From the NCBI RefSeq assembly GCF_018977255.1, contig NW_024704742.1, positions 64,358,001 through 64,422,000 on the forward strand: a stretch of 64,000 nt of DNA, read 5' to 3'. Positions 1,556 to 41,056 of the stretch are shown one piece after another. Source of the DNA: Callorhinchus milii (lineage: Eukaryota). A program made the position numbers and the translations under genes. Each line of letters starts with the position of its first letter. Positions within the stretch are counted from its first letter, which is position 1. A model generated the notes under the pieces. That model did no database searches. It was not told where the DNA came from and saw only the letters and a program-made list of their open reading frames with translations.

Positions 1556-2342
1556 CCTTTATTTGCTGCCCAGAACAGGGTCTTTGTTATGTGCAGTGCA
1601 GTGTAATCGGTCTATATTGAGGTTGAGAACAATATCTAAACACACAAAGATTCAAGGGTACTGAGCTGGTTGGAAACAGGTTTGTGCTGCAGCTCCTGAA
1701 ACCAACAGTGGTACCTACTGGTTGAATGGGGGAGAGCTAATTCCCACACTATTTAGGACTGGCTCCATTGCAGATCAGCAAACTGGATAATAGGATTTTA
1801 AGCAAAATACAAATTAGTTCCTGCTAAGAAAATTGTCTGATCAGGAGTTATACTATTCCTATAGCAGCCCCATGGCTACTTTCATGTCAGAGACCAATGG
1901 GGGATAAATAGACATGCAGAAAATAGCATTCTACCATATAGTGACATTGACAGAAGCTTATTAGCAGAATTTTATAATATCAATTATCCTTGCATTTGAT
2001 ATAGCGCCTTTTCACATCATTGAGATGTCTCCAAGTGCTTGACAGAATAAAGTGAATTGACTAATATTTTGTGGGAAATTTTAGGTTGTTCTCTAATTGG
2101 AAGGAGAAAATTGACAAAATGCAGGGAAGAGGGAAGAAAAATCCTGAAAACTTTACTTTAAAATTGCCTCACACACCTCCCAGTTTAGTATTCAAGTTGT
2201 TTTGTAAACACATTGTCACAAAGCTGGACGTGACATCATATTTTGCCTTGCCCAGAAAGTAGCCAAGCTGTTTCATTTCTCACACATCCCCTTTGGTGTC
2301 AAAACAGTGGTTCTTTTGCTTGTTGTCAAATCATAAAAAAAA

Positions 2343-2762
2343 ATGTTTGATTGGAAAGAATACATTGAGACTGTTCTGAACGACAGTACCATTGAGGACA
2401 TCGCAATCGTGGGATGCACACCAAAGAACAAGATAGTTTGGGCTTGCAAACCTGACGGGGTACTTGGCAATGTGACATCTGTGGAAGTGGAAGTGATCAT
2501 CGACAAGGACAGGAAGTCAATTCTCCAAAATGGAATCACCATTGGTGGAAAGAAATATTCTGTTATCAGAGACAACATGATGCTAGAAAAAGATCCATCA
2601 ATGGATATCAGAACACTTGGTGATGAGGGGAAGAGTATCTGTATTGGGAAATCATCCAAAGCATTGGTGTTCTTGATGGGTCACAAAGGAGTTCACGGAG
2701 GGGTTTTGAACAAGAAGATGCATGATATGGTTGATTTCTTAAATAAAAATGGCAGTATCTGA
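2343..2762 (+). CDS. PFN3: Intronless profilin, PFN3-like, 139 aa
   Basis: Single ORF with profilin hallmarks: DWKEYI (poly-proline-binding W/Y), DIAIVG, VWA, GITIGGKKYSVIRD, DIRT, LVFLMGHKGVHGGVLNKK. The N-terminus and the short loop after DIRT resemble PFN3 rather than PFN1/2, as recalled. Good start context (AAAATGT). The symbol means 'PFN3-like'; orthology is not proven. Confidence 0.9.
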   Translation: MFDWKEYIETVLNDSTIEDIAIVGCTPKNKIVWACKPDGVLGNVTSVEVEVIIDKDRKSILQNGITIGGKKYSVIRDNMMLEKDPSMDIRTLGDEGKSICIGKSSKALVFLMGHKGVHGGVLNKKMHDMVDFLNKNGSI

Positions 2763-5700
2763 TTACTGGCAGGATGAAAGCAGATGAACCCAAATCTTTT
2801 CATGTTTTTCCACTGAGAGAGGGTGAGTAGGGTTCATATTAGGTTCATTGTGAGATACTGGCAAAGGGTTCTGCCATGTGCTTTCACAGAATAATGAGCA
2901 AATTACAATAATCGACAGCAGGTACCCCATTAACCCTGAAACTCACTGTAAAATGCTGTGTCCATATCTGGACATGGTTGATAGCTTTAGAAATATTCAT
3001 AGTCATGGTACAACAGCAGTATTAATACTCTTAAATGGTATGTGAACAAGTTTAAGTGGTATTTCAAATCAAAACATGAGCAAAAGCAACTTTGGGAAAG
3101 TGCATTACAATATTTAATATACAGTATTTAATATACAGTTCAGCAATGCTGCTATGAAGGTATTAACAGAAGCCATAAATGATCATAAGGCATTATACAG
3201 TAGAGGACCCAAAATCCACACTAAATGGGAGTGGTATCATTGCAAATATCAAAACAGTGTGGATAATTGGTCTCTATACTTATGTGTATTTATCTTTCTC
3301 CTCTCCCTCTCCATCTGTGGGTGTGCTTCAATAATCCTCCACTGTCAAGCACTCTGAGATGCTACCCTGCGTGGGGAGCGCTATATAAATGCAAGTTGTT
3401 GTTGTAGCTTATCCCTCTAATTATTAATTTACCTGAATTAGTCAGGTGGTCAGCAAAAATTAAATCATTTACCAAGGACAAGCCTGCATTTTCATGCCAA
3501 GGGAAGCAAACAATATGTTGTAGATCATATTTTATTAAGAAAACAAAACCTCAAAAGGCAAAGTATTCCTTCAGTTGGGTGTAATAAAATATTCCAGAAT
3601 ACTTTCCTCTGGTACACCCATTCTATTCAAGTTGATTGATACAATATGAAGTTCTTTTTTATTTGACTGCAATAGGTTTCTACAGAATGATATTTAGCAG
3701 AGACAAGTACACCAGAAATTTAACACATATCCTTCTGCAAGCCACAACACAGAGTACATTTAGGAAAAAATAAATTAGTGAACGCACCTTTAACAAAGAT
3801 AACACAAACCAAAATGTATCACTCTGTCTTTAAAATTACATTTGCCAAACAAAAAATGATCTTACAAATAGACATTGCCACGTTTTTTTTATTGTCAGTG
3901 AACAGTTATTCCAAATCAATTAGTGCAGATCTCTCAGATGATGCTTTTCAGTAGAACTCCTTTGCTTGGAAAGGAGTCTGCATTCCTCTAGGGGATGGGT
4001 TTATGAGTGTCCCATGGTACAAATGGACATCCCCCACCCCACCCCACCCCCAACCACCCACCCCCAACAAAAGGGCATAGCCTTTCTATCTAAAAGCATT
4101 GACAAATTTAAGTTTGTTTGATGGCGTTTTAGTGCCTCTTTGAGTATAGATTGGATATCACACATGTAATGATATGTTTGATAGTATGTTTCACAGGTTT
4201 AGCAATGCTCAAGACTCGTGAGTTTCTCATGAGTGCCAGCATTAACTATAAAGCTCTTTCAATGAAACAACCCTCTTTATTTTGGGGTTTCTCCAGAGAG
4301 GATTAAACAATCTGATCCCAATGCAACTGAAGGACAGAAAGAAAGAGCACCATATTTTTACAGCTTCTTATCATGCTGAAATATCTCAAAGTACTTTACA
4401 GTAATGACTGTAAAGTGTATTATTTGTTTTTATAGGAAAATAAAGCAGCCATGTTGTGCACATGAGGGTCTGAAAAAGAGCCATGATACGAATGACCAAT
4501 TTAATAGGGAGGAGAAATGGCCAGGCACTGGGAGAAACATTCGTCTCTTTTTGAATAGTGGAATAGGATCAGTAGCATCCACTTGAGAAGGCAACTTCAA
4601 CAATGCAGCACACCCTCAATGCTGTACTGGAGGGCCACCAACAACAACTTGAATTTATATCGAGCTCGTCACATAGAATTTTATCTTTAGCCATCATGTA
4701 CTGTGAGCTCAAGTCCTGATGTGGAGCATGAATCCACAAATTTATGATCTAGCTGTAAGACTGATACCAATGAGCCTAGCTTACACCTGGGAATTATTGT
4801 ACATTTAGGAGTGATTTAAGATGTAATATATTAGTCCATCACACTTTGTCAGAGACACAAGGTCCAAATCCTATTGATTTCAGCCTTAGAACCATGAGAA
4901 GTTTGAAGCCTCTGGGTGTGATTATTAGGAGACATTATCCCAATCCAATTCTAGCCAACTTTGGAGAAAGTGCAAACATCCCAATTGCCAACTTAATCAA
5001 GTTTAATTGAACACCTTTTACAGGGAGTCTAATTGCATTAATAGTCTCCAACCATCTCTCAACCCTCATCACTGCAGACGAAATACTTCTGTACAATCTG
5101 CTCCTTAAGAGTTGGACCTTTTACAACAATAACTTATTTTTACCTTTTGATCTTGAAAGTATTCACTCGCAAGGTTTGCAATTTGTTTTTGTATCAAGAC
5201 AAACAATACAAACATTCGCTGAGTATTTTGTGTGCCAGCTTGGTTCAGTGGTAGCACTCTCCTTGTTGATAATAAAAAAAGTTTTGCCTCACATCCCAGA
5301 ACATATTAGTGGAGTAACCAAAGTTGAAATACTCATAGTTAAGTGTTTTACTCTCGAGCATGACTTCTGAAGCACAGTTCTTTAAAAGCTATATCAATTC
5401 TATAATACTGTAATATGCACAAGGCAGCATGTTCTCTCATCCCAAACTATTGAGTTATCAATAGCAAAGCCTGTACAGAGCAAAAATAGACACATAAGTT
5501 AACATGAATCATTTTGAAGTTATTACAAAATGAAGAGAATGTCTAAAATTCAAATGAAACAAACTTTTACTTTGCTTATTGAAGATTTAATCTCTCCCTC
5601 CAGCCTCCTCCACCTATTCCCACATTGTGGACTAGAAATCCAGCCTTTTTTCCATAAACTACAGCAAAGTAAACCTCTCTGACCGTGTTTTTCCGGCACC

Positions 5701-5842
5701 GAGTCATGTCTTAAACTTCAAACACTTTTCAAAAGTAAAAATGGATGTAAACATATTCCTCTGTGTGTGCTTCTGTAAAAAAAAATGAACTGATTCTCTA
5801 TAGTTGCCACTTGTTGTGATTGCGTTGTAAATATCCCTAAGT

Positions 5843-6109
5843 CAGGGTGGTCCAACTGGTGGCCCGGGGGCCGCATCCGGCCCGGGGGATGATTTTATTT
5901 GGCCCGTGAACCATTCCCAACTTTGTTTTCCGACAAGCAAATACAAGCGACGTGGAAGTGTTGAGCCGATCAGGAGACAGTCACCGGGGTCTCAGGTTCT
6001 GCCTTGCAATGGGGACTGGCCAATCCGGATAAAATATTGCTTATGTGACCCACGGATGTTTCTCAAACTGGCCTCCAGCCCTCAGCAGCCAAAAGGTAGG
6101 ACCACCCTG
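5843..6109. mobile_element. Non-autonomous hAT (Charlie-like) DNA transposon
   Basis: 11-bp TIR CAGGGTGGTCC/GGACCACCCTG, subterminal GGCCC..GGGCCGCATCCGGCCC motif, and degenerate 8-bp flanks ccctaagt/atctaagg. Confidence 0.75.
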
Positions 6110-8714
6110 ATCTAAGGGATTGACTTCAGGAAATTGCCCCATTTTGAACTGAGCCCCAGGATTCTGATCTGACTACGAGCTGTTCGAACAGAGTTCTTTC
6201 TGCTAACAGCATGGAGGAAATCTAGATCAGCCACAGTCCTGCCCAAGTCTAAGCAAGAGATGAATGTCTCACACCACATTGCTAAACAAGGTAATGCCCT
6301 GCTAAACAAGGTAATAGCTGAGATGCAGCTATGGGCAGCAGAATTCTTGCCTGTAGAAAATTAATTAAAAAGCTACTTTAAGAAAATCTCACTATGTAAA
6401 ACATTCAAAACAAACCTTCAGGATATTAAAAATTCAACACAAGTATCTCAAAACGAGTCTACCTGTACAGTAATAAATATCAGTAATAAATATTAATTCC
6501 TCATCATAAACCTAATTCTTTAATCTTCCATGTATAAAGATTGACTACATCTGCGTTCTAGGCGCTTTTTATTACTTAATAAGAATATATTTTTATTCTT
6601 ATTTTTGTGCGAGTTTTGCCCACAAAATATACAGTCAATTCACTTTTCCGTGTATTCTATGAAGCGCTTTAAGATGTCTCAAATACATGATAAGACGCTA
6701 TATCAAATCCAAGGATTATTATTATTATTAATTGTGCATTGTTCATCTGCCCCCTGCTGACCAGGGAGGCAAGAAAACACTACATAGGAAGCATCATTGT
6801 ACAAGTCTGTTAGAGCTGAACCTCATATCTAGCAGCTTTTTCAATTCAGCAGACAAAGGCTTGGCGAATGTGAAATGATCAACTTAAATCTCTAATCTAT
6901 CTTTAGTCACCATTAAAAGCTTAAATATGACTTTAAAAGAAGTAGTTAGGTGTTGGGTTCACAAAGTGACAATAAACCTTACTCCCTAACTGCTGGTTCC
7001 CAACGAGGCACAGATTAGTCCCTATTGATATGACATTGCAAGAGAGGGCAACAGAACCATTACACATTAAGATTACAGCAGTAAACCTGAACCAGAAATG
7101 AGGTTGAATAATATATAAATAAATACAATATAAATACACATAACAATAATTAATCCAAGGGGGGGTGGGGGGGGGAAATCTTTCCGTCAAAGCTCCTCTT
7201 GCAGTTTTTTTGTTCTTTTCTTGAATTTCCTTTTGGTTTATAATTGTGAACGATTTGTCACAAATGTCAAAAAGACATCTGTGCTTTCTATTGAATCGGC
7301 AGGACTTACTGGTAAAAGAAATAGACCTTAAGACCCTGATAGGCAGTAACTGGTATAAATAACTGTGCAATAATGCAAACATGTTTTGAACTGAATTTTA
7401 AACCTTAAAAAAAAGCACAGTTAACTTCTCAAAATTGCTAAACTTGCGCTACAACTGACTATATATTGCATTGCAAAATAAGGCATTCTCTTACACAAAA
7501 TAATGTGTAAATTGTTGTCTGAATTTAAGAACAGTAACTAAAAATACGGAAGATGATTTGTTGTACTTATTGGGATCAGCTCACTGGTGATTTTAGCATC
7601 ACCATAAGTAACATTCGGCATTGATATTGCAACCAAATCTAAGATAAAAAATTAAACTGCCCGAATTTCTAAAAAAAAAGTCAAGCTCTATGCAAGTTGG
7701 AGGAAGAACAATATACATTAAACTGAAAAACGATTTACATAACTATAGTTGTAATGTGAAACAAGTGGCATTCTGGGCTGCTTAACAGAAGATGAAGCCT
7801 TGGCTCTTGCCCACCTGCACCAAATGCTTTCCGGAATTAGGCAAACAGGATGTGTCCCTCCAGGGGGAGAGAGCGCGTTCCATTCCAACACTCTATCCCT
7901 GGGATTTCCATGTGTAGGTGGGATGCAGGGAAATCTCAGTTTGGTTTGGAGATCTTAAGCATGGGGATGGGTTTCTGCAGGTGTCAAGACACCCGGCTGA
8001 CCACAAACAAATAACAGAAGATGACTCTTCCCAGTCTTACTTCCAGAGCTATTAAAAATCCATCAGCAGCTGAACGGCAGTGCAGGAGTGTGGCAGCACC
8101 ACAGCTGACAGCGAACACTCCATTAACAGAACACCTCAACATCAGAAGAGAATTGAGTCGGTTCCCCAGCACCAGTTACACATCTGGGACTCTGAATTCA
8201 GTGCTGTGCCTGTCAAAACCCTGACGTGCTCCCTTACATGATGTGCCAAGCTCAGCGAGAGTGCTGGCCACAGGGAGAAAAGGCAGAGGATGGCAGAGAT
8301 CCACTGTGCTCTGCTATATTGGTGACTCTGCAGATTTCCATCTCACTCCACTGATGTGGATTTTTGACCCATGGCCCCCAGAGACAAAAAGAAACAGACT
8401 ACAGTCTGCGTCTCCTGTCCCTAGCCATCACATCACCCTAGTTGCTGACGTTGAATGACCTAAACGGCAGCTTGAAGATTGAGTATTGTAAAGACTTAAT
8501 ATATTCATTGCAGTCAATATGCTGCACAAAATACATTGCTCTGAATAGTCCATTGTAGTGGAGAGAGAGCACTGTACTCAAAAAGCAACATCAGAATGGT
8601 AGTTGGACAGCCACCTGCCCTCAGTATCGACACCCATTCTGACCCTGGGTAATCTTAAGTACTGAATGAATGAAAGAAAACAAAGCGGTCTCTATATCTG
8701 GCAACATCGCTGGA

Positions 8715-8851
8715 TCACTGCAGCGCTCCTTTCCGCTTCTGTTCCAGCTCCTGTAACCGCTCCTCACGATTCTGAGCGTGCTGTGTTCCCACCTTGTGTG
8801 CTGTTTCTGTGGCTGTGATATCAATCTGGGCATATTTGGATGAACTTGCTC
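8715..8851 (-). CDS. DOK7: DOK7 long-isoform last coding exon (GASSSKYAQIDITATETAHKVGTQHAQNREERLQELEQKRKGALQ*)
   Basis: acacag|GA acceptor, open to TGA at 8715-8717. Matches the YAQIDI.ATETAH C-terminus recalled from the long human isoform. Confidence 0.9.
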
Positions 8852-10034
8852 CTGTGTCAAATAGATAAGCATCATGAGTAAATGAAGAAATGGGAATTTA
8901 AGAAAAACACACCTGGAACAGAATAGCAGGAAGCATGATTGAGGACAAAATATCAATACTGAGATAGTTAGCCAGACCCGGCCCAAAATCTAAAGATTAA
9001 ATTACTATGAACAAAGATTTCTGCTGGCCGTGTGCAGAATCCTACTGACCCAACTCTCCTCGTGGCTGCCAACACAGCGCTGGCAGCCTCACCGTGATCG
9101 CTGGCCTTCACTGTGACCAGGGATATCGACCTTGATACAGATTGAATCCAGTGAGCAGAAAATAGATCAGTTGCTATCTTCTGCTTGTGGGATTCAAACA
9201 ATTACAACATTAGTTGTGGCATTTACAAGCATTTTTGAAACACACACTAAATTATAATTACACTTAGCTGAACATTGTGGTTTATCAGACCGGCTAGCCT
9301 GAGCTTAAGTGTAGTTGCATTGAGATAGATGTATTGAAACAGTGATAATGTACTGAGACAGCGATATTCAGCGTGATACTGAGACAGGGATGTACAGATA
9401 GCTGTACTGAGATAGCTGTATTGAGATTTGTAATCCTTGCATTTGATATAGAGCCTTATCACGTCGTTGAGACATCTCAAAGCTCTCATAGGATATATTG
9501 TAAAGTGAATTAACTGTGTATTTTGTGGGTGAAACGTGGCAGCTAATTGCGCACAGCAGTGTCCCACAAACAGTCATGGATTGAGTAACCAATTTCTTTT
9601 TGAGGGATTATTACCCTGGGAAAACGATTCACCAATCGGCTTCAACCAGGTTCCCACTTACTGCTTGGTAAACTGGCCTGAGGTTTCGCCCTGGCCAGAA
9701 ATCAAACCCAGGTCCTCTCGATTTCGAAGCTTGAGAGATTGAATTGTAAACCTTATACTTACCTTTGTCTCCCGCTCCCCTCCCTCACCGGAGACACTTG
9801 CATCTAAAGATGTGAGGGGAGCAAGTGTTTGTAACATGACTGTCTGTAAAAGCAACTTTAAATATAGTCATATTGAGCGAGTGATATTAAGAGACACGTC
9901 TATTGAGTTGTATCGAGACAGAGAAATTGCTAATTGTATTGAGATAGTTGCATTGGACAAAAAGCTAAAGGCAGTAATAAACTCCTTTAACTTTGATGAA
10001 GAATTGTGATGTGCTACTCAGTTTGTTGTGTTAC

Positions 10035-10166
10035 CTCGAATTGCAGGGCTGGGTTCCTGGAGCTCTAGTTCCATGTAATGCAATTGTTTCTTTGACGCTG
10101 GGCTGACTGGGATATTCACATAAGTGACTCCTTCACAGCGAGGTCTATCTGCCACTGGAGCTTCAG
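10035..10166 (-). CDS. DOK7: DOK7 long-isoform penultimate exon (EAPVADRPRCEGVTYVNIPVSPASKKQLHYMELELQEPSPAIR)
   Basis: 132 nt, atccag|CT...CGAG|gtaaca. Matches the TYVNIPVSP..KQLHYM segment recalled from the long human DOK7 isoform. Confidence 0.9.
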
Positions 10167-10911
10167 CTGGATAAACAAACACTCCTCCTAGTGGGAGAGA
10201 GAAGATTTACAGAAAGTAATCATAATCAGCAGTTTTCTTTTCACTTTCCCTACCTAGCAAGATATAATAATTTTCATATAACAATAATCACATTTGGGAT
10301 AATCCCTTTCATGAAGGGAAAAGGGATGTCTGGAAGTGAAACAAAAACAGAAGTCGCTGGGAACACTCAGCAGGTCAGGCAGCATCTATGGAGAAAATGG
10401 GGTAGAGAACAGGGGATGATGGGTTACAGCCCTCTGGCCTCAATATTGATTTTGAAAATTTCAGACCATAACAGCTCACCTTCCCCCTCCCCCTCTTCTG
10501 TGACCATTACCACATCACCTGGGTCGCAGACACACTTTTTTATTCTCTGGTCTGCCTACTTTGTTGCAGAGGAAGTGGTCGGGTGGGTGGGTTGGTTAGT
10601 TACCAAGACCTGAACTATGTGACAAGGTTAGTCACAAGTTTTGCTGAAAAGGAACATTTGGTGCTATTTATTCAAACAAGTCAATTTCAAAACAAGTTGT
10701 TTTAATAACAACTTTTAACAGAGAAGTAGATAATTATTTGGGGAGGACACGTTTGCAGGGCTATGGGGAGAGAGCCGGGTAGTGGGAATGATTTGGGTAG
10801 CTCTTTTCAAAAGCCGACACAGACACGATGGGCCAAATAGCCTCCTTCTGTGCTGTATAATTCTATGATTCTATGATACTAAGTCAAGCACGTGCGTTTC
10901 AAGGTGTTTAC

Positions 10912-10975
10912 CAGATAATTTCTTTGTTTCAATGCTGCCTGAAGATTCGTCTTCTGAAAGAAGAAAGCCTTTCTC
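10912..10975 (-). CDS. DOK7: DOK7 long-isoform candidate exon (EKGFLLSEDESSGSIETKKLS)
   Basis: 64 nt, ttcacag|GAG...TCTG|gtaaac, phase 0 to 1; restores the frame into 10035-10166. Confidence 0.5.
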
Positions 10976-11994
10976 CTGTGAAGGCCAAGGTCAAAACATC
11001 AGTTGCAGAACAAGACAAATTGGATTGTAAATATGAATTGTAACGATTCTGCTAAAATCACATGTATTTATTTCCTCTCCAATAGATTTTCCTCCAATTT
11101 TTTCCCCTCTCCAAAAGATATTTGACTTTTTTCCTGCTAATGAGACACAGCTCCCCAGAATCCCCTCATCCACATTTACCTCACCTAAATGGTCATGATT
11201 CATGTGTGAACCTTGAGTGCAAATATTGCTGCTTAGTTGACAGTGGGGGGACATCACGCCCAAGCCAATGTTGTTCTTCCTTCTAGCTGGGGATTCTCAA
11301 TAATTTACCTTCTGGAAAGATTCCTGCTGCTTTTTCCAGCTAGGACGACCCTAGGACTATGGCTTGCAAGGTTAATAGGAGCTGAGTGGATGACTCCCTG
11401 CCCCCAGTGACTGGTCTGCCCCTTCCAGGTCCTGCTGTTGAGCCAGGCCGGGCTGTGCTGTCATCAGCAGTGCCCTGGAATACTGCGGCCCCACCTGGCT
11501 CAGGAACCAGACTAGAGACTGTCACAGAGGATTGGCTCCGTTCTATCTTTCCATTGACAAGCATGTCACCTTGGAACCAGTTCAGCTCAAAGGAGACCCC
11601 GCTTATCTCCCTCCACCCAAGCAGGATAGGCCATACTGATAGAAAGTGGGAACCCTGATTGGTTTTCTCAGTTTCTCAGAAATACTGAGTGCAACTGCAG
11701 CACCAAGTTCTGGGTGGGATCAGCTAATATGCAGAGATTGTAACCCGCGAACTTCTACTGAACAGCCTAGTGAGGCACTTGGAGCCAAGATTGTACCTTT
11801 ACCCACTGGGGCACCAGAAGAGATCAATCCATGGACCACATCTTCTGTCGTGACACTTCTTATGTCCACAAACCCCACCCCCAGCACCACAATGAACAAA
11901 GCATTAAAATGTAAACATATAGTGTTTAAATCTGTGTTCTTTTAGGTTATTTGCCAGCTGGGACTTTTTACTACAGAATTTACGGTGAAGTTAC

Positions 11995-12068
11995 CTTTTT
12001 TGGTTTAAGACCCATGACGTCCAGATGTGTCCCTTGCCCTTTATGGAGCTTTAAGCTGCCAGTTGGAC
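11995..12068 (-). CDS. DOK7: DOK7 long-isoform candidate exon (GPTGSLKLHKGQGTHLDVMGLKPKK)
   Basis: 74 nt, caacag|GT...AAG|gtaact, phase 1 to 0. In frame only when paired with 10912-10975. Confidence 0.5.
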
Positions 12069-12168
12069 CTGTTGCCAGAAACATCAAAACAATGATTTAC
12101 ACTGAAATTCTATATTATATTATTAGAATAGCCACATATATTATACTGTGATAGTGAGTGAACCTTAC

Positions 12169-12238
12169 CTTCTCCCTCTAACAATAGCTTCTGGTGTCCA
12201 CAGCTGGCCATATATTCATATCCACTGCCTTTCTCTAC
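12169..12238 (-). CDS. DOK7: DOK7 long-isoform exon (VEKGSGYEYMASCGHQKLLLEGE)
   Basis: 70 nt, ttacag|GTA...GAAG|gtaagg, phase 0 to 1; carries a YxxM motif. Confidence 0.72.
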
Positions 12239-12956
12239 CTGTAAGTCAAAGGTGAATCGATTGGTGAGACAATGTATAAGATACTCTCTGCTTGGCGATT
12301 TTTAAGAAAAGTTACAGAATAATATATTTTACAAAGACTTCAGTGAATACAATGAATGCATTCCTCTCATGTATCATAAATACATTTGAGCCATATCTAC
12401 AACTTACAAAAGATAAGAACAAGTGTACAGAACCAGAAAAGACTATTGCAGGCTATCTGTCTGGTCCCAGGATAAATCAACTATTTATCAATAAAATCCC
12501 AAAGAATAGGGTGGTCCCTCCTGGGCAAACGACAGGATGTTTGCTAGTCTGTGTTCTTATTACCATTACATGTGGTTTTATAGCTGATTCAACTCCAGCC
12601 GTACCTCAACATACACTCTGGGGTCCCTGAGCCTTGGCTCTTGCCAACCAGCAGCTAATCTTTCTGGGATTAGGTGAGCAGGGTGCGTTCTTTCTGAAAT
12701 GTGTTCTCCATTGCATAATGTGATATTTCCATACATGTGCGGAACTCTTATCAGTTTGGATTGGATACTTTGAGGTATGGTGATTAGCTTCCAAGTACAC
12801 CAGACACCCATCTGACCAAAAGAAATGCAAGCTGCAATCTACAGGCATTTAAAATCAAATCAAAGCTTATAATATATGACTGCTCTTTACATTGCCCCTT
12901 CTCCTGCAATTTCTCTTTGGTGTTATCTGAATGTTTTTCCTATTGAGATTTCTCAC

Positions 12957-13051
12957 CTCAGCTTGTTTATCTGTTGCCAGAGCCTCCATAAACTCGTACG
13001 TCTGTCCTGTTCCTGTCTTGTGCCTTTCCTCCTTTTTCTTTGGCTTCTTAT
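12957..13051 (-). CDS. DOK7: DOK7 long-isoform exon (DKKPKKKEERHKTGTGQTYEFMEALATDKQAE)
   Basis: 95 nt, cttcag|AT...GAG|gtgaga, phase 1 to 0; carries a YxxM motif. Confidence 0.7.
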
Positions 13052-15002
13052 CTGAAGCAGAGCACACACACAATTGCTATGCATGTTTCAAGATACGACA
13101 TGTCTGGTTGACAGTTAGAATGTTTGCTGTCAAAGGAAATGGCTCCACTCTCTGTTTTTGGCCTTGTGATCAGCAGCAGAATGTTTGAAATGTCTCATTA
13201 TCGACTGTAACCTAAATTAGTTCCTGACAACCTTTAAACTGGTGGGGGTGAGAGAGCGACAGGGGTGGGGGTGTGGGGGGAGGGATGCAAGAAGATTCTT
13301 AGATGAAAAGATTTAGTGAAGTCAACAGTAAATATTATTCTTATGTTCTAAATGAATCACAATGTGAGTGCAATAGAGATGTGTGAAGATTATTACACTT
13401 GTAACAATTGCACACAAGGAAAAAATGAGGCACAGTGAAGTTTTAAGAGATTTGTTCTTTATTTATTGTTCAGTTATCCAACTAGATAATAAACTGAGAC
13501 AAAGAGAAAGATAACACAAACGTGGAGAGCAGGAAGAAGAATTCTGAGAATCTATGGTTCATAAAAAAAATCAGTGAGCAGGAGAGTTAAGGAACAGAGT
13601 CAATAATAATAATAATCCTTTCATTTGATGTAGCACTTTATCACGTCATTGAGATGTCTCAAAACGCTTCACAGAATATTTTGTAAAGTGAATTGACTAT
13701 ATTTTGTGAACCAAACGCAGCAGCCAATTGTGCACAGCAGTGTCCCACAAATAGTCGTGGATTGAGTGACCAAATTATTATTATTTTTATTTAAAAACTC
13801 AGTTAGAACATAGTTAGCAATAGATAACAATAACTAATGTCACAATGTATTGTTTTCCAGGGAATATAAGAAAGTGCAGAATGAGCAAAGCCTAATCAAC
13901 CCATTGAGTCTGTTTCTTCTATGGACCATGTACAAATATACTCTATGTTGGGCTTCAACTCATCGTGTGGAAAGTCCTACACATATACTGTCTCACCCAA
14001 AAGCTTGACCACATATTCAGTGTCAATATATTCATCCATCTGACGATTTCACTCTTCATCTCCAGCCTGGTTCCTTCCACATACAACATTCTCCCCTCTC
14101 CCAAACCTAAGGACCACAGAACCCACAGAGTCTCTGGAATTACTTGTCCTCTGTTTCTGGTCTGAAATCTTTTTACTTACCATTTGCCTACATTACAATA
14201 TAAAGCAGAACACTGGGATTTAATCTGCTGGTGAGTGTTAGTGGAGAAGCAATGGTCCAGGTGAGACTATCTCATTCCTCACCTGGGAAACAATACATTG
14301 TGACATTGGACAAAGGTGATGTGTGCCATAATAATGGAGGAAATAATTTTTTAAAAATTTGCAAATTCACCTCTTTATAAGAAACAAAATACTTATCTTA
14401 CCATCACTATCTTCATCCAATTCCTTGCTGTCCCAGACCTCTCCTTACCACTGGGTGCCTCAAATCAAATGAGACCACTCTGTAGTCTGTAGCCATTCTC
14501 TCCCTTTTCCTTGTTCGACCATGTTTAGAATCTGGAGATGCTTACAGTTCAGTGCAGAATATGTTTGCTGTTTTACTGCCAGAGATATTTGCCCTAGTGC
14601 ATTTTATTTTAAAATCCCTGATTGTCCAGCGCCTTGGGACATCTTCCTGACGTGAAAGGCGCTATACAAATGTAATTATGTATCTCCATTTCTTCTTGCC
14701 ACAGAAAACCTTCTGCAAGTTCAAACTGAGTTTCCGAGCTGCGGCACAGAAGAAGACGATTCAGCCCATTGTGCCTGTGCAGGCTCTTTGAAAGAGCTAT
14801 CCAACCAGTTCCACTCACTCTTAACCCATAGCCTTGCAAATTATTTTTCTTTTTAAGTAACTATCCAATTCCCTTTTGAAACCTGCTATCAAAACTGCTT
14901 CCACCACCTTTTCAGACAGTGAATTCCAGACTGTAACAATGATCTCTAACAGTAGTATAACCACACATGTCTATGCTGTGAAGCTCAAACTGCTTCCTTT
15001 AC

Positions 15003-15176
15003 CTGTAGGATCATAAATGGCTGCTTCACTTGACCTGGGGAATGTCTGAGCCTTTCCAATAACAACAGATAACTTTTTTGGAGAGTTGACTTTGTAAATA
15101 GCTTTTGCGTCCTCAATGTTCCAGTGGCTTCGGAATTTACCTTCATGGTTTTTGAAACTCAGTGTCTTTTTGCCTC
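15003..15176 (-). CDS. DOK7: Possible in-frame cassette exon of DOK7 (GGKKTLSFKNHEGKF...SSEAAIYDPT)
   Basis: 174 nt, ttttgtgcag|GA...ACAG|gtaaag, phase 1 to 1 with no stop. No homology recognised. Confidence 0.4.
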
Positions 15177-18100
15177 CTGCACAAAAGCTTTAGACTTTAC
15201 TGCTGCAAATATGGGCTCATACATTGATGTGCTATTGCCTTCTGGGTATCGCTGTCCTTTGTTTTCTGTCTGTTCTGGTGTGTCTATGTCCTTTACAGTG
15301 GCTTTCGGGCTTCTCTGGCAATTGAATATAACCAGACAGTTTGCTTAGAGCTACAGAAATCTCACCGACTATTGTTAGAGATCCTGGTTTTGACACAAGA
15401 GCTGTTGCTGTCAGTGGATTCTCTCTCTTCAGTCACACCAGTGTACATGGCATTGAGACGTGCACTTTTGGCCTCCAACTTGGCTTTACATGCATCCTTA
15501 GCACATCTGTCTGGCTCACTATTAAGTGCAGCATTGTTCTGGGCTGCTCTTCGAAGGTTGCATAATTCAGTGATTTGGTCAACGAGCAAAGCTTTTCACT
15601 TCAAGCCTCCTCTTTGTTTGCACTGAGAGTTCCTGCTCTTTGTGGTACAAAATAGCCATAAACATTTTACACAGCAAATCACTTGCACCCTCTTTTCGAA
15701 AATAAAAGGACAAAAAAGAAATCCCTCTGGAAATGAAAAACGCAAATGGATGGTTACGGTGTCTATACCAATAATTCCTCATTTTAATGTAAGCGCATGG
15801 ATCCATTAGCAGTCAAGTGACTCCACACAACTTGAAGGAAATTCTTGACTTATTGATAAGAACCAAGTATTCTTTCTTGTGCTTCTAACAAGATGATCAC
15901 CAGATCTAGAAATGGGATGTAAGAGGTTTACTGTTCAGTCTGAGGGGCTACTTTGTGTCGAAATAGAGGATCTGCTGCTGTTCTTTTCCAGAAGAGAAGC
16001 TGGTGTTTGCTCAATAAATCAACTAGATAAATGACTTCTTTCAGAAGTTCAGAATAATATGAAGATGGATGAATGATCATTCCTTTTTCCCCTCCCTCTG
16101 CCCCCCGAAAAAGTCTATCAAATATGAATTGGTAGGTTTGTGTGTGTTGTAATTTGATTTTTTTGTTCAGAGAACGACTTATCAATATGTGAATATGTGA
16201 ATGGCTTCTTAAAGCTGTTCATAGGATGTGGAATGCCTTGGCGGGTGCAGTGATCCAAGGCAGGATCCACATTAGCTTTCAAGAAGGAACCAGATCGATA
16301 TCTATAATGGAACAAAATTGCAAGAGTATGGGAGAAAAGGCAGGTAAATGGAACTGAATGGATTGCTCTTTCAATGAGTGCAGCAAGGACACAACAGGCC
16401 AAAAGGTACTATTCGGTGCTATAAATTTCTCCGATTCTATGATTCGAAGTGTGGCGTAGACAGTTTCTCAGTGTTAAAGAAAGAGGAAGATCAGCTAAGA
16501 GCTGCACAACTTACTGCACACAGAACTTAGTTTTGTCTAAGAAATCGATAATTATGAAGGATGCCATAGCAGAAAATAAAGTTTTACTTAAAGGAAGTCG
16601 TTCCCTTCATTGACTGCTTCCCAATCCATCTTTATTATCCTTTATACAGTAGAAGGTTGCATGTTTATGCCATAACGTATGAATTCTAAATCAACCCTGG
16701 GCTTAAAGCCGTCCAAAATAACGGAAATTACAAAACAAACTAATGGCGGTTAATAAGTCCAATTGAGGTTATTACGCTGATAACAGTAATTTCTTTATGT
16801 CACAAACAAGGCAGAATTTCACCAGGATATTAAGACTGGTTACTTTATTTTACTCTCCAAATTCCTTCATTAATACTACTAAATTTATGATGGAATTTCA
16901 GGTCCATAATGTTATACAGCACATGATCAAGTTCACTTGTGCACCAGTTACGCAAAGACTTTGTCTTGGTTTGACGGGATTTCTGCATTGAATAATATAA
17001 TTTACATTAATATAGAGGCTTTTGTGTCAGGAGGATGTCTCAAAATGCTTGAGAATGCTGGCTGGGGGTGGGAGACGAGGAGGTGGGGAGGGTAAAGATG
17101 ACCGAAAGTGTGGTCAAAGGCGTATGTTTTAAGATATGCCTTGAACAAATGAAAGGAGAGACTTCGGGAGGGAGCGAAAAAATGCAGTTTAATAGCGTTG
17201 TAAAGATTACAAATTCAGCCCATGGAACATGATAATGATAATAATAATCATCTTTGCATTTGATATAGCGCCTTATCACGTCTTTGAGACGTCTCAAAGA
17301 GCCTCACAAAATATATTGTAAAGTGAATTGACTGTATATTTTGTGGGCGAAATCAGAGCTGATACGATGTGTGAGCAACACAACAAAGTATCCTCTGACC
17401 TCCAAATTCCCATCTGATGATGAATGTCTGTTGCAGTAAACATGCTTTACTGTTCATTCAGCTGCATATTCCAGATTCTCCTTCAGTTTCAACAATGAGG
17501 TCAAACATGTACCATTCAGAACCGTAATTCTCCAAGGATGATGAATATCAAATCCTGCCAGAAGCCTGATGAATGTCCCTCAATTCATGTTCAGGAGTTC
17601 CTCCCAATATTCTGGCCAACAATCTCCCTACCCATTGAAAAAAATGGGATTATTACTTCACTAATCTGCTCACTCCCTCCACTCGATGGCCACAGGCCTG
17701 TGCATGACCCCCCACACTGCCCAACCCACCATCAGTGGTCAGGTCTTCATCCTCTCTGACCCCACCTTCTGGAACTCGATCCCAGAGGGCCTCGCTCTCT
17801 CCCTTGCCTCCTTCAAGGCCCACCTCAAGACCTTCCTCTTTGACCATGCCTTCAGTCATCCACCCACCCCCCCCACCCTCCTTGCCCCCCACACCTCTTC
17901 ATTTCAGCCCCCAGCTCAGGTCCAATCCCTCAACTGCCCAGCGCCTTTGGATGTCCTTCAGATGTGAAAGGCACTATATATATATAATTTGTTGCTGTTG
18001 TTGTTATTATAAGTCCCTTTTGGCAAACACAGAAATAGATCATATTGGAGTGACAAGTTGATGTGGTGCCAGTTACTATCAAGATTTGATGTTTATGATC

Positions 18101-18216
18101 ATTTGCAAATCCAGGTGGTAACGTCTGTATTTTCACCTCCTCCCAATACACCACTAATCTATCAGTGGACAATACCTGAAACATAATAAGAAAGTTCTTG
18201 ACTTTGCTCAGCTTAC

Positions 18217-18268
18217 CTGGTACAGTTGGGGTGGATGAGGCTCCTCCTGGACTTGAGATTGTTGTTCC
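18217..18268 (-). CDS. DOK7: DOK7 long-isoform exon (GTTISSPGGASSTPTVP)
   Basis: 52 nt, aaaag|GGA...CCAG|gtaagc, phase 0 to 1, which fits the phase-0 donor in exon 7. Confidence 0.75.
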
Positions 18269-19229
18269 CTTTTACAAAAGAGACAGAGACACAGAATCAT
18301 TTGATGGATTAATTTACAAAACTGGAGCATTGAAACAGAACAAGGTCAGGTTAATTAGGATGAGGAAATTTGATTCAGAATAAATTTTCCTTTTGGAAAA
18401 TGAAAGTAACATGCATCACTAAAAAAAACAGAAACCATTACTTTGCACAGAATAGGTACTCAGTGTGTCACAGGCTGACCTCCTGGAACTCCGCTCCAAT
18501 GATGGTTAACGCTCATCAGCTCCCAGTGTCAGGATCCTCCTTCGGCTGCAATCATCTTCACGCGGGTTTTAACAGAGATCGATGCCAGAGCGGAGTTCCA
18601 AGGTCCAGCTAAGTACATGGGAGGGTGGGGGGGTGGATAGGGGAGGTGAGGGGGGGCCGGCAATGCTTGCGAACCAGCCTCCAAATTTAAGTCTGAGTTT
18701 GGTTTCTATATAATACTAGCATTAAATTTATCACATCATCCGAACCATATCAAAGCCTTCACACAATATATTGTAAAGTGATTTAACTGTGTGTATTTTG
18801 CACGAACGCATAGCCCAATTTGCACACAGCAACATCACACAAACAGCCATGGAATGACCAAGGAAATCCCTTGGATTTCAGGAAACTGGGAGAGAGAAAA
18901 TTTCCTTCTTTTTTTGAATTGTGCCATGGGATCTTTAATGTCCATCCAAACAGGCACTGACAGAGAATTTGGTTTAGCGTCTCATCCAAAGGACAGCTCC
19001 TCCAACAAAGCAACACTCCCCAGCATTGCATTGGAGGGTCAGCATAGAATATGTGGGTTACATCTTAGGGCAACAGGAATTTTGGTACAAAGAATGAGTT
19101 ATCGCTACCAAGAAAGCTTACACTTCAAAGCACTGTGCAGCAGCGCATTATAATATTGAAGTAATCAGTTCTCAAGTCTCCATTTTTTAAAATCTCTCAC
19201 AATCTTAACTTTTAATACAAAATGGTCAT

Positions 19230-19617
19230 AATAATAATAATCCCTGCATTTGATATAGCGTTTTAATCACATCGTTGAGACATCTCAAAGCGCTTCACAG
19301 AATATACTGTACAGTGAATTGACTGTATTTTGTGGACGAAACGCAGCAGCCAATTGCAAATAGCAGTGTCCCACAAACAGTCGTGGATTAAGTGACCAAA
19401 CTATTATAATTTTTAAAATGTATTTATTTATTTGTTTGCTTTTTGAAGGGATTATTACCCCGAGAAAGCGATCCGTCAATTGACAACTGGGTTCCTACTT
19501 ACTGCCAGGTAAACAGAGGCATGTGGAGTAAGGAAATTTGCCTGAAACCTGCCAAGAAATTGAACCCAAGTCCTCTCGCTTGCACGGCAAGTGCTCTAAC
19601 CAGTACACGACACGACT
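19230..19617 (-). mobile_element. Same SINE family, full-length minus copy; other - copies at about 9430-9725, 13602-13790, 26720-27053, 33995-34360, 35078-35430, 52888-53200, 56667-56967, 59045-59292, 60708-61030, 62202-62478, 63061-63368
   Basis: Reverse complement of the 47980 element, from the (AAT)n tail to the tRNA head. Confidence 0.85.
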
Positions 19618-21684
19618 AGACTTACTGGCTCAGATACCTGGAATCTTGGAGTTCCGGGTGTCAGACTACCCCCTTCCATCTTGTGAGCATAAGGATGAGA
19701 TTAAATAGATTGAAGAACGTCCCTCCCCCTGGTTCGGAGTCATGCTCCATCACTCTGAGACTCTACCCTACATGAAGAGTGATATATAAATGCAAGTTGT
19801 GTTTTTGTTGTTGTATCCCATTCAATAATGAGACAAATTGTACTGTATTTCAGTTTGCATTACATGCAACAAGTGTGCTTTATGTCAAAGTCACAGCAAT
19901 GCAATGAAATCCTTGACAGGACATGTCCTCTGTTTTGTTCTGAGCTTCACATTCCCTGTAACTCAATCCCTTGGCTTTCCTTGTACCCCAAAATAGATCA
20001 CCATCTGAACAAGGATCAATACTAATTTGGTTTCTATATGTTAGATATCTGTAGGTCAGCAGGAATTTTGGCACAAAGAATGAGTTATCACTACCAAGAA
20101 AACTTAAACTTCAAAGCATGGCCCCAGCAGGACATCATATCACTGAAATAATCAGTTGTCCCATCTCTAGTTTCCTATTGCAGTGCAAGCCTTTGATAGA
20201 TTGTTGTGTAATCTGACAACATTTTGTTGGAAGGCTGTCTCAGTTCTAAAGAATGAAATAAACATTCACATAGCGACTCAAACACAAGCACAATATGCTC
20301 ACGGCAAACCGCGAACAGCAAACAGGTGGAAAGGACAGCATCTGCAAATCATGAGTTACTGCGCTAAATGTGACTTTGGTTTGCACCAGATATTGCCAGA
20401 TTTTCCATCAATCGATGGAAACTCTGCTCACACACCCAGCAAAGACTGTGTTGCAGCTGCCGTTTTGCTTTTCCCGATCTTTACAGACCATTTCCATAGC
20501 TGAGAAACTTCACAAAAAGCAAAGAGAGAAAACACAATGTTTTTCTGTTTCCAAAGAAAAGGCCTCAAAAAAGAAAAGCTTGTAACGCAAAATGCCGGCA
20601 GCAAACAGCCTTCAGAGTCCTTAGGGTACTGATTAGAACACTTGTCTCAAAGCAAGAAGATTCAGGTTTGATAACTGGACAGGGCGAAACCTTGGGCAGG
20701 TTTTCTTACTCCACACACCTCTGTTTACCTAGCATTAAGTAGAAACCCAGCTGTTAGTCGATTGGCAGATCGCTTTCTGGTGGTAATAATCCCTCCAACA
20801 AAAAAAATTGGTCACTCAATCCACGACTATTTGTGGGATACTGCTGTGCGCTGTGCACAGTCAATACACATTATAATATATATTATGTGAAGTTCTTTGA
20901 GACATCTCAACAACATGATAAGGCGTAATATCAAATGCACAGATTATTACTATTACTATTATTTATTTTATTTTACAATCTTCGTTGCAAAATTTGGTGG
21001 CAAACTGCGTAATTTGAGGAGTAAATCTCAAATTGGAAATAGCACATAGCAGCTTCCAGTTTGTGCATGGCACATTTTCAATCTTATTTTTAGTCAACTC
21101 ACTCTATGGGTGGGAGAGGAGGATGGGGATGAGGCGGAAAAGATAATCTGTTGTAATGGTGATCCAAAAGGATTGCCTTAAACTGAAGGCATTTACAACT
21201 CAAAAAGAGAAAGCAGTTTCTCCCTGTGTTGTGGCCAACAATCCCCCAAATAAAAATTGGTGATTCACTCATGGCTGTTTGTGGGATATTGCTGTGAAGA
21301 CATCAACTGCCACATTATCTACAAATATACAGTTGTACATTTCACAGTAAAGTCCTGTGAATTGCTTGAGACATCTCAACGATGAGATAAGGTACTATAT
21401 CAAATGTAAGAATTATTATGTTTGCTCATTATCATGGAGTAAGGGTTCTTCAGGCTTGAGAGAAGACATCTCAGAGGGAATCTTATGGAGGTGTATAACA
21501 TTTTAAACATAAACAAGGTAAAAGAGACAGCATCAACAAGATAAACAGGTTCTGGGCTAGGTTGCCAACCCCATAGTACTGGGTATAGTTCAGGTCATTG
21601 CCTAGACCCTAAAATCAATGTAGAGCAAAGCTTTGAGGAAGATCCCGTGTTAAATGGTCAGCCATGACGTCCCACTAGATTAGC

Positions 21685-22050
21685 CAGGGTTCTTCAGACT
21701 GAATAAGAACATCTGAGAAGCAATTTTAAGGAATTATACATATGGTCAATGAGATTGAAAAAGAGAACTCAGAACAACCTTTCAGATACATCAAGGTAGC
21801 AGGACAGGAAAGCACAGATTCAAGGATGTGAAGGACAAATTAAGGATAGACACCCAAAAGCATTTCTTTATTCGGAGAATAATTAACAGCTGGAACGAGT
21901 TACCAGGAAGAATGATAGAGCCCAGAATCCTAGACTAATTTAAGAAACAGCTTGATGGTTCAATGGGAAGGTGAAAATGTTGGTGTTCTGGATGGATGGC
22001 ATCAGATGGGCCAAAGGACCTTCTTCATCTGAATCTCTCTTGTGATCTCG
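21685..22050 (+). mobile_element. Decayed CR1 LINE 3' fragment
   Basis: Similar to the reverse complement of 40010-40430; ends gatgggccaaaggacc-ttcttcatc. Confidence 0.6.
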
Positions 22051-24002
22051 TGCAAGTGCAAACACGAAGAATGTTCCTCCTTTTCCTCCTAGTTCTTCAG
22101 ATCAGACCAGTGGTATTTCACAAAGGAAAAAGTGTGAAAAACTCAAATTACAGTGATCACGTGCCAACCCACATCCCCTAATTGTTCAGTGACCACCCCA
22201 TCAAGGTTGTTTCCAATGTAGTCTCTAATGCACACATTAATGAATCAGAAGAAAGATTTCATATTTTTGAAACAACAAAGCACGCTTTCTTAAGTTCCTG
22301 TTTGGTCTACAAAATATCAGCCTGAGTGAAGGGTTTCCTCTGTGTTTGTTGATCATTCATTTCCTTACAACAAGAGGTAACACCTTTAATTCAGAGAAAG
22401 TTGAATAAGCCACACAAATAGGAAGTTCACAATGAAAATAATCGTACTAATTCATCACAAAACTTCCAAAATGTACAGCAATAGAAGACACTAATTCACA
22501 GTCTCGCCATCAAAACCCCTTTTAAAGTCAAACAGTTGACAAATGCCTTGGTTAGATTTCTCTGTTATAAATAGTTCACCAAAAAATGTATCTCATGGGT
22601 GAACAATAATATTTTACACAGTGTAGTCAGTCATATGAACTGAATGCACATCAGAAAAAATGGGAGCTATTGAGTTTGGAACAATTCAACAAAAAACTCA
22701 CGGCAATTGTGGTCATTCAGCTCCATGCATTGCCTACTTCATTAGTTCCTCTTAATTTGCCTAATATATTTGTGTTGGAAAATATTCCAAAATTCTCCAG
22801 AAATTCAGATTACAGAAAAGGATATGTAGGTTTTGTGAAATGGCTGATTGTTAAGAGAGGCTCCGATGGTGAGATTCCCTCTTTGAACACTTGACTATAC
22901 AACAACAACTTGCATGTACATAGCACCCTTCATGCGGGGCAGCATCTCGGAGCGCTTAACAGTGGCGGAGCCTGACCCCGAGCCAGGAGGAGGTGACTGT
23001 AAACACGGTCGAAGAGAAAGGTCTTCAGAGATGATCTAAAAGAGGGAAGGAGGGGACAAGGCAGAGGGATTGTTGGAGAGAGTTCCAAAGCTTCAGGGTG
23101 TAGTGGCTAAAAGCGCGGCCACCCATGGCAGAGTGGAGGGGATGGGGACAAACAGGAGGCCGGAGCCAGCCGAGTGGAGGCAGTGGTTAGTGGAGTGGGG
23201 GAGAGAGTAGGTTGGAAAGGTAGAGAGGTGCCAGGGCATGACGGATGTTGTGGACAAGTGAGAAGATTTTGAAATCATCAGTGGTAGTACAATGGACAGT
23301 AAAAAAGCTCTGAAACAGGTTTCAAAACGCACAACAGGAAAAGAAGACACTCTGTCCAAATGGAAATCTTCAGGCAAAGACAATCTATTACGTGCAGGTC
23401 ATGAAAGTGAAAAGAATTGTAGCTTACCTCCACCAAACACCTAGTCTTAAGTGTGCGCCATTGTTCATAGGTTATGTAGTTTGGGAAAAAAGAATGACTG
23501 CACTGGGGTAGGAAGAAGAGAAAGAGATTCAAGATTTGGATTGTGTTTGTAACTTTACATCCGCTTAAGCCATTATGAATTAAAAAGACCGTGCTACATG
23601 GTTTGGGAAATGTAAAAATGTCAGCAAACTCATTGATAACATTTCAGATGTTTTTAAAATAGTAATAGTAAGGCTTAGAGGATGTGAAATTACAGGCCTT
23701 TGCTGAGCAAAGAAGTAGACTTGACTATGACGATTCCCAACAAATAAAATAGCCTGCCAGCATTTAATATGAAATTGATTGGCGGCATATAAAAGGAAAT
23801 TAGATAAACACATGCAGAGGAAGGGTATTAGAGAGTCTGGGGAAAGAGAAATGAATTGGGTTTAGAGCAGATGGCCTCTTTGGGTAGCAAACACAGACAT
23901 TATTACAATGTGTCCAATGGCCTCCTAGTGCTTGTAGATGTTTATGATTCAGCTCCAACATATGGAATGGCCACTCGGACAAAATATCAGGACAGTCAGC
24001 AC

Positions 24003-24078
24003 CATAGAACAGTAATCCATAGAACAGTAATCCATAGAACAGTAATACATAGAACAGTAATCAATAGAACAGTAATCC
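24003..24078. repeat. Tandem repeat, 15-bp unit CATAGAACAGTAATC, 5 copies
   Basis: Directly visible; produces the HRTVI repeat ORF. Confidence 0.95.
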
Positions 24079-24384
24079 AGCATGACCTCTGGTGGTTGAG
24101 CCAGGGGAGAAATAAGACAACAAATAGGAAAGAAAGCCACAAGAGACCATATGAAAATAGTATCGACTGTAGCCTGTGGCAAACTGTCCCTGGCAAGAAT
24201 GCAGCTTATATAGAAACTGTCCAAAACCACAGTGATGGCACCCATTAAATTGCCACTGAGTAATCTTTGAGAATACCACAAGTGTTAGAGTACGTAAAGT
24301 AGTGACAATCAAAGATGAAGAAACAGCACACAAGAAAATCCCAAGGAAATAGTGGAGCTACACACAAGATAAACAAACTGTACA

Positions 24385-24630
24385 GACTGAAGAATCAAAG
24401 ACGATTTAGTGTTGGAAACACATGAGGAATCAGAGATAAAGGAACTGTATACAGTGAGGAATCAACAATAAAGGAATGAACGGTAAAGGAGCTGTACACA
24501 GTGAGGAATCAAGAGATAGAGGAACTGTACAGAGTGAGGAATCAACAGTAAAGGAACTGGATACATTGAGGAATCAATGATAAAGGAACTATACACAGTA
24601 CAGACTCAGTTATAAAGGGACTGTACACAA
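24385..24630. repeat. Degenerate tandem repeat, about 32-bp unit GAGGAATCAA..ATAAAGGAACTGTACACAGT
   Basis: tgaggaatca and aaggaactgta recur about every 30-33 nt. Confidence 0.8.

Positions 24631-41010: not shown

Positions 41011-41056
<46 letters not shown>

Follow-up and report, generated by a model that had tools for sequence, protein, structure and literature searches.

Profilin-1 and profilin-2a have introns in their coding regions, and human PFN3 has a single coding exon. The described marks of PFN3 are a short beta5-beta6 loop, the replacements F59L and Y128H, and the loss of Y133 and F139 (Behnen 2009, PMC2694148). The testis isoforms are counted as PFN3 and PFN4 (PMC8387879), and mouse PFN3 acts in the formation of the acrosome and the manchette, its loss leading to subfertility (PMC8632698). 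The human gene sits at 5q35.3 in the block RGS14-SLC34A1-PFN3-F12 (PMC3291538), and a survey of the genes downstream of Slc34a recorded Pfn3 in mammals and marsupials only (PMC4996343).

The gene considered here, which we call copy A, occupies positions 2343..2762 on the plus strand of a 64,000-nucleotide stretch of the Callorhinchus milii genome (the window). Like mammalian PFN3, it has the short beta5-beta6 loop (three residues shorter than in PFN1/2 in our alignment), F59L and Y128H (as L61 and H127 in the chimaera protein and all six elasmobranch orthologues) and no aromatic residue at 139, it keeps W3, Y6 and W31 of the poly-proline groove as listed by Behnen 2009 (PMC2694148), and it has a convergent neighbour with a possible 3' overlap (SLC34A1 in mammals, PMC4996343; DOK7 here, on a weak hint). 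In contrast to mammalian PFN3, with which it shares 43-46% identity, it forms a separate lineage beside DOK7 and HGFAC, lacks the sequence block ASKPGGxLAAISPQEV, has K90 replaced by Leu and Arg135 by Asn, and retains an aromatic residue at position 133 (F132). Profilin-1 and profilin-2a share with copy A the fold (TM 0.86-0.90) and, on the same lists, the actin-face contacts R74, R88, H119 and K125; unlike it, they have a longer beta5-beta6 loop, F or Y at 59, Y128, K90 and a full poly-proline site. A further gene, copy B, coexists with copy A in elasmobranch genomes and, together with gar, sturgeon and coelacanth profilin-3, has the PFN3 marks as in copy A, but it lies on another chromosome (37 versus 3 in the skate) and keeps K90, a basic residue at 135 and Y133. 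The elasmobranch entries called 'profilin-3-like' and the coelacanth protein H3A465 are, on the tree, orthologues of copy A (78-86% and 53% identity, respectively).

The automatic 'profilin-3-like' names already cover copy A, without telling it from copy B. Polet 2007 (FEBS Lett) is reportedly the main profilin phylogeny. It and Pandey 2017, both outside our search, may mention the gene, and the papers searched included none that treats it as a paralogue of PFN3.

The profilin gene and its neighbours

The initial annotation had described an intact single-exon profilin lying tail-to-tail with DOK7, and both parts of this description held. A reading-frame scan gave an ATG-to-TGA frame of 139 codons without stop or shift, whose product matches the Pfam Profilin family (PF00235; E=1.5e-23, 83.7 bits against a cut-off of 25, residues 4-137) and, in the PDB, profilin-2 and profilin-1 (E=5e-33 to 2e-30); an AlphaFold2 model (pLDDT 81.7) reaches a TM of 0.89 to rat profilin 2a (2vk3). 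A contig of run X2, whose cover is even and DNA-like, matches 2002-2869 with 0 differences, its source possibly being that of the assembly itself. The sole database model for the locus, C. milii entry A0A4W3KAB7 (134 aa), is 99% identical to the frame over the aligned part and has the N-terminus MSPS. These four residues can be read at 2025..2036 (plus strand), within a repeat of which the window has up to 22 copies, and MLDWK occurs in six of six elasmobranch orthologues, in register with MFDWK of the window, one of the six having six extra N-terminal residues. Because all six orthologues match the frame's own start and MSPS lies in a repeat, we kept the reading in which the coding region, on this sequence, is a single exon, and we judge the MSPS start to be an annotation artefact.

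About 105 bases 5' of the ATG, at 2231..2238 (plus strand), stands the CRE/AP-1-like octamer TGACATCA. It is the single plus-strand copy in 64 kb, where about one per strand is expected by chance, and, the motif having been picked post hoc, a possible CREM-type germ-cell promoter site is a lead only.

The coding span of DOK7 covers 8715..54786 on the minus strand in 14 tblastn pieces running from 54,786 to 8,718, of which one exon matches Dok-7 in 3ml4 (E=5.8e-30) and the large exon is 100% identical to C. milii DOK7. Copy A and DOK7 are tail-to-tail because they lie on opposite strands and converge, their stop codons being about 5.95 kb apart. A DOK7 intron contains, at about 14,950-15,600 (minus strand), what is left of a large optional exon that is part of the DOK7 translation in several sharks; it is 33-42% identical over 39-73 residues to the long isoforms, is spread across frames and has stops, and the exon appears, from its sequence, to have decayed in the chimaera. 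A GC-rich 14-base minisatellite of 34 copies lies in a DOK7 intron at 42,653-43,133, and there are further short tandem arrays at 24,002, 24,472, 57,172 and 59,346.

On the 5' side of DOK7, at 57999..63013 (minus strand), five protease-domain exons belong to an HGFAC-type gene, the rest of which lies beyond the window. In single-exon PDB matches tPA and F12 came first, HGFAC trailing by no more than 4 bits. The exons (57,999-63,013) are open and correctly spliced, the catalytic His (TVAHC) and Asp (YDI) are kept, the Ser codon of the catalytic motif (DACQ|VDIGGPL) is changed to one for Ile, and the activation site reads RQGIISE; identity to a sturgeon HGFAC piece is about 26%. From its sequence, the protease appears to be either a paralogue that has lost catalysis or the second half of an HGFAC duplication, and doubled domains have been noted in elasmobranch HGFAC (PMC6337849). 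Sturgeon gene models (P0197, P0239) have HGFAC domains fused to DOK7, which suggests that the HGFAC-DOK7 order is also present in sturgeon. On the other side of copy A, inspection by eye of 1-2340 found no frame recognisable as LRPAP1.

Four of 12 runs, with coded tissues, were compared with the window, X1 being RNA-like by the tool's guess; in the runs on record as RNA copy A was not found. The contig depth of X1 is 27 at 7987-8853, 15-31 at 3381-7852, 3.9 at 2786-3075 and 2.6 at 2551-2812, over the 3' half of copy A, with none at 2295-2539. Because this cover fades from the last exon of DOK7, the pattern fits the tail of a DOK7 3' UTR better than a profilin mRNA and suggests that the UTR is about 5 kb long and trails into copy A; we place this probable feature, its strand being inferred, at 2551..8714 (minus strand), with its faint end reaching across the 3' half of copy A. 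Within 2,551-8,853, poly(A) words occur on the minus strand at 3531, 3658, 3888 and 4276. X6 and X8 gave no cover of the copy A frame, contigs being of a kind that shows neither strand nor absence. The X1 tail may recall the overlap of SLC34A1 and PFN3 in mammals (PMC4996343), which, with contigs that carry no strand, is only a hint.

Copies A and B in jawed vertebrates

A first protein search, which yielded 15 proteins from 20 candidates, separated into two identity tiers. The upper one consists of the C. milii entry and, at 78-86% to the chimaera protein, of six elasmobranch proteins (Heptranchias, Pristiophorus, Mobula, Scyliorhinus torazame, Cetorhinus and Leucoraja, with the database label 'profilin-3-like'). 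The lower one, at 55-59%, consists of eight proteins, namely shark and ray copy B, the profilin-3 of gar and one sturgeon protein. Both copies are present in Cetorhinus, Leucoraja and Pristiophorus. The best 120 of 439 matches listed from a profile search include PFN3 in coelacanth, amphibians, reptiles, birds, mammals and a salmonid, as well as H3A465, a second PFN3-type protein of the coelacanth, which apparently also carries both genes. Among these same 120 there is no tetrapod with two PFN3-type genes and no copy B of C. milii; the latter may be due to loss, an assembly gap or an annotation gap. Birds, turtles, crocodilians, lizards, amphibians, gar, sturgeon and salmonids all have PFN3 orthologues. 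In Amblyraja (P0016/P0017) and in Narcine (P0028/P0039) a single chromosome carries two B copies, which probably arose in tandem.

The proposal that the gene was retained in cartilaginous fish and lost in mammals needs widening on both sides. It is retained in cartilaginous fish, but apparently not only there, as H3A465 groups with it, and the annotated proteins searched yielded no copy A in mammals, nor in ray-fins, amphibians or sauropsids. Of the 148 other 50%-cluster representatives scored (40 listed), none had the A profile as its best among A, B and PFN2, and an ESM Atlas search with copy A returned generic profilin clusters only.

Identities set the two genes apart. Shark B, coelacanth PFN3 and a turtle protein are 67-76% identical to one another and 47-54% to elasmobranch A, and the block that copy A lacks is common to shark B, coelacanth PFN3 and tetrapod PFN3. 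The window frame is 53-60% identical to the PFN3 groups of shark B, gar, sturgeon, coelacanth and tetrapod (turtle), and 43-47% to PFN2; H3A465 is 53% identical to the chimaera protein and 53-56% to sauropsid PFN3. Between chimaera and elasmobranchs the large exon of DOK7 is 59-65% identical and copy A 78-86%; copy A is therefore better conserved than this exon of its neighbour, which argues for purifying selection on it.

The main protein tree comprises 75 rows and 137 columns and a second tree 32 rows; they contain no named PFN1 and omit Gekko and Pelodiscus (gapped models) and 45 of the 121 collected proteins, mostly redundant birds and teleost PFN2. In the 75-row tree the PFN3-type genes are separated from PFN2 with support of 100/100, which, with the loop, F59L and Y128H, bears out the initial description of the gene as PFN3-like. 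The chimaera protein, the six elasmobranch A proteins and H3A465 form a clade (100/93; A at 99/97 in the 32-row tree) in which the chimaera branches off below elasmobranch A, the position expected of a holocephalan, and shark B forms another (100/99). Tetrapod PFN3, mammals included, is one clade in both trees (99/97 and 97/94); copy B as a whole is weak in the 75-row tree (91/18) and broken up in the 32-row tree. The stem branch of copy A is long (0.3), as is the flagged branch of H3A465 (0.74).

AU tests were run on the 32 rows, eight in number and uncorrected, so that the rejections are modest. They reject a shark-only duplication, with shark A and shark B as one clade (p=0.017), a single clade of all sarcopterygian copies (p=0.028), tetrapod PFN3 and coelacanth A as sister groups (p=0.028) and a shark A that is separated from H3A465 and adjoins PFN2 (p=0.043); they do not reject a pairing of the two coelacanth genes (p=0.092), a single B clade (p=0.36) or the grouping of A with PFN3 of tetrapods (p=0.43) or of mammals (p=0.22). 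Two polarised columns favour shark B with tetrapods and one favours A with tetrapods. Taken as sequences, the A and B copies very probably diverged before the split of sharks and bony fish, a date that rests in part on the long coelacanth branch, and the branching order of A, shark B, ray-fin and sarcopterygian PFN3 is, on these alignments, star-like.

After the addition of 40 unnamed representatives, some of them PFN1-like, the PFN3-type group remained intact at SH-aLRT 85, and no representative from outside jawed-vertebrate PFN3 joined it. A jawless-fish PFN3 was not identified among the unnamed representatives, P0348 included; this candidate grouped with another unnamed lineage (P0250, P0309, P0313, P0318, P0327, P0348) that stands apart from PFN1, PFN2 and PFN3 at SH-aLRT 97, most of its members ending in LNxKAFxMA, and that is possibly another little-known group of vertebrate profilins.

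Chromosomal addresses and the origin of copy A

Two proteins were called as sharing a chromosome where an equal sequence size in bases was attached to both, a call that tells the chromosome and not adjacency, and in which a size taken from a multi-member cluster may belong to another member. Copy A and DOK7 are on equal-sized sequences in Heptranchias (141,859,166), S. torazame (275,710,820) and Cetorhinus (228,627,932), and skate copy A is on a sequence of 113,524,483 bases, the size of Leri_3C in the supplement of PMC10115646, where the baits Rgs12, Dok7 and Lrpap1 stand at 23.65-23.94 Mb. Copy A is thus on the DOK7 chromosome in all four testable elasmobranchs, Mobula and Pristiophorus being left out. 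PFN3 or copy B and DOK7 are on different chromosomes in nine of nine cases (whale shark, skate, gar, five birds and Mixophyes), a comparison from which Cetorhinus B, Acipenser sinensis and Calonectris were left out as unplaced or from different assemblies.

A second PFN3 near RGS14/GRK6, which the initial annotation had thought worth looking for, was not found there in the skate. Its copy B is on Leri_37C (13,149,398), with Rps11, Cpt1a-1 and Kcnc1-2, a chromosome listed as CLG-H 2-beta (PMC10115646 and its supplement), and the five placed 5q35 markers Nsd1, Dbn1, Prelid1, Pdlim7 and Lman2, a count that excludes Grk6, Rgs14, Slc34a1, Fgfr4, Mxd3 and Ddx41, are all on Leri_11C. SI Table 3 of the same paper gives 'LER1, LER3?' as I/Q 2-alpha, LER3 carrying the question mark, and LER11 (=GGA13, chicken 13) as I/Q 2-beta. 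Copy A, by RGS12 and HGFAC, and mammalian PFN3, by RGS14 and F12, are thus probably on 2R sister segments. In the best 120 of 439 matches, bird PFN3 is on sequences of 109-148 Mb, apart from one raptor with 43 Mb, and that of turtles on sequences of 212-218 Mb, which by their sizes we take to be chromosome 3. Chicken 13 is a microchromosome. PFN3 of birds and turtles sits on a macrochromosome and not at the mammalian address. PFN3 therefore has three addresses (mammal, skate, bird/turtle), which imply two moves on any model.

The pair HGFAC and F12, which stand in the paralogous blocks of the initial annotation, is dated differently by two papers, which derive F12 from HGFAC by a duplication just before lungfish rather than by a genome doubling (PMC6337849, PMC9368803); from their positions, we infer that the two are 2R paralogues. 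On the synteny of PFN3 nothing was found in the available parts of PMC4486697, PMC7269912 and PMC8455134, and six gene names had no match in those of the supplements of PMC8302630.

Copy A is a real, conserved, protein-coding and very probably ancient paralogue of PFN3, and we put the probability that the two are 2R ohnologues at about 65%. A single-exon ancestor of PFN3 would have stood beside the ancestors of RGS12/14 and HGFAC/F12 before the second, alpha/beta doubling of jawed vertebrates. The alpha copy would have remained by DOK7, evolving faster for a time, and would survive in chimaeras, sharks, rays and probably the coelacanth, being lost, or unannotated, in ray-fins and tetrapods. 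The beta copy would be PFN3 proper, in mammals still within RGS14-SLC34A1-PFN3-F12, and it would have moved away from there at least twice, to chromosome 37 in the skate and to a macrochromosome in birds and turtles. Of the earlier suggestion that copy A is the whole-genome-duplication sister of PFN3, the age (before the shark/bony-fish split) and the DOK7 chromosome (four of four) speak in its favour and the ohnology itself stays at likely; that the intronless PFN3 lineage preceded the vertebrate duplications would hold at most for the second of them, not for both.

The three addresses can also be read as those of a mobile gene, copy A being an ancient germ-line copy of PFN3, retroposed or DNA-transposed, that settled by DOK7 in a stem jawed vertebrate. 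PFN3 would then have been elsewhere (e.g., on a segment of the skate-37 type) and have come to 5q35 only in mammals, the look-alike neighbourhoods being a coincidence. A single-exon CDS, a stem branch of 0.3 of the sort frequent in new copies, a skate B outside the I/Q paralogon and the survey that found Pfn3 in mammals and marsupials only (PMC4996343) all agree with such a history, which we nevertheless think unlikely. It saves no moves, and it needs the mammalian copy to have landed by chance one or two genes away from RGS14 and F12, which are paralogous to the neighbours of copy A, RGS12 and HGFAC; our estimate for such a landing is of the order of 1 in 1000. We favour the ohnologue model because it alone explains, without coincidence, why PFN3 of mammals lies in surroundings paralogous to those of copy A. 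One or both moves would disappear if copy A and mammalian or tetrapod PFN3 were the true 2R pair and shark B, perhaps with the ray-fin and sauropsid 'PFN3', a third copy, and the weak monophyly of B and the failure of the AU tests to reject A with tetrapod or mammal PFN3 leave room for this. It is improbable, however, given the single tetrapod PFN3 clade in both trees, the closeness of shark B, coelacanth PFN3 and turtle to one another rather than to elasmobranch A, and the absence of a two-copy tetrapod from the best 120 of 439 matches; ohnology in a broad sense that admits this hidden paralogy is somewhat more probable than the ohnologue model by itself.

A narrower distribution, with copy A confined to cartilaginous fish and H3A465 an independent fast duplicate joined to it by long-branch attraction, draws on the branch length of H3A465, on its being no closer to the chimaera protein than to sauropsid PFN3 and on the non-rejection of the two coelacanth genes as a pair; we consider it highly improbable against the rejection of a shark A plus shark B clade, the support for A with H3A465 (99-100/93-97) and their common Tyr72 and common loss of Lys90. 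The initial annotation had named two outcomes that would undo its proposal, a recent retrocopy of PFN1/PFN2 and a translocated sole PFN3, and neither was found. The single exon, the lack of a C. milii B among the best 120 of 439 matches and the lack of mRNA evidence in the compared runs could be fitted to one or the other, or to a pseudogene, and yet such an origin is scarcely credible. Copy A as a recent retrocopy was rejected on its 43-47% identity to PFN2 and its intact orthologues in chimaera, sharks and rays, those of six elasmobranchs among them; the three-residue loop deletion, L59 and H128 are common to it and PFN3, with which it stays after PFN1-like and other unnamed representatives are added. 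Copy A as the one-to-one orthologue of PFN3 was rejected on the second copy held beside it in Cetorhinus, Leucoraja and Pristiophorus, which is closer to tetrapod PFN3.

Predicted function and meaning for the profilin family

Substitutions on the actin face distinguish the two genes further. K90 is replaced by Leu and no basic residue stands at 135 in any of the seven chondrichthyan A proteins, and all B proteins examined keep a basic residue at 135; Tyr72 and the loss of Lys90 are shared with H3A465, which has R and F at the PFN3-mark positions 59 and 128. Because shark B, gar and coelacanth PFN3 keep Y133, the double loss of Y133 and F139 is a tetrapod trait. The net charge is 0 in the window protein, +3 to +5 in mammalian PFN3 and +10 to +11 in the strongly basic shark B (pI 9.8). 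By these residues, copy A is predicted to have weak affinity for actin and for poly-proline, and the changes of Lys90 to Leu and Arg135 to Asn would weaken the basic actin/phosphoinositide patch further. By analogy with PFN3, copy A is most likely a low-affinity G-actin-binding profilin of spermatids that would act at the acrosome or manchette, and its expression is likely to be testis-biased.

Put together, copy A would be a further profilin of early jawed vertebrates and the 2R twin of PFN3, bound to DOK7 since before the split, deprived of part of the basic patch and with a distinct role in spermatids, while PFN3 moved independently in elasmobranchs and in the line of birds and turtles; this combination of claims we advance tentatively, as possible rather than probable. 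Both twins may lie under the antisense 3' UTR of a neighbour, DOK7 in one case and SLC34A1 of mammals in the other, and if this is true, such an overlap would be a recurring feature of the PFN3 subfamily.

Our findings add one gene to the ancestral profilin set of jawed vertebrates, date the single-exon PFN3 lineage earlier than the split of sharks and bony fish, and probably earlier than the second genome doubling, and correct the confinement of Pfn3 to mammals and marsupials in the survey cited above (PMC4996343). They are also a warning case, in which 'profilin-3-like' labels mix two paralogues and true PFN3 has changed its address. For spermatid actin biology the family offers a natural experiment, with a near-complete poly-proline and basic surface in shark B, a copy A that has lost basic contacts and a mammalian PFN3 without the aromatics. 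This is a refinement of a gene family and not a new mechanism, and it is relevant to the study of profilins, of spermiogenesis and of gene loss in vertebrates.
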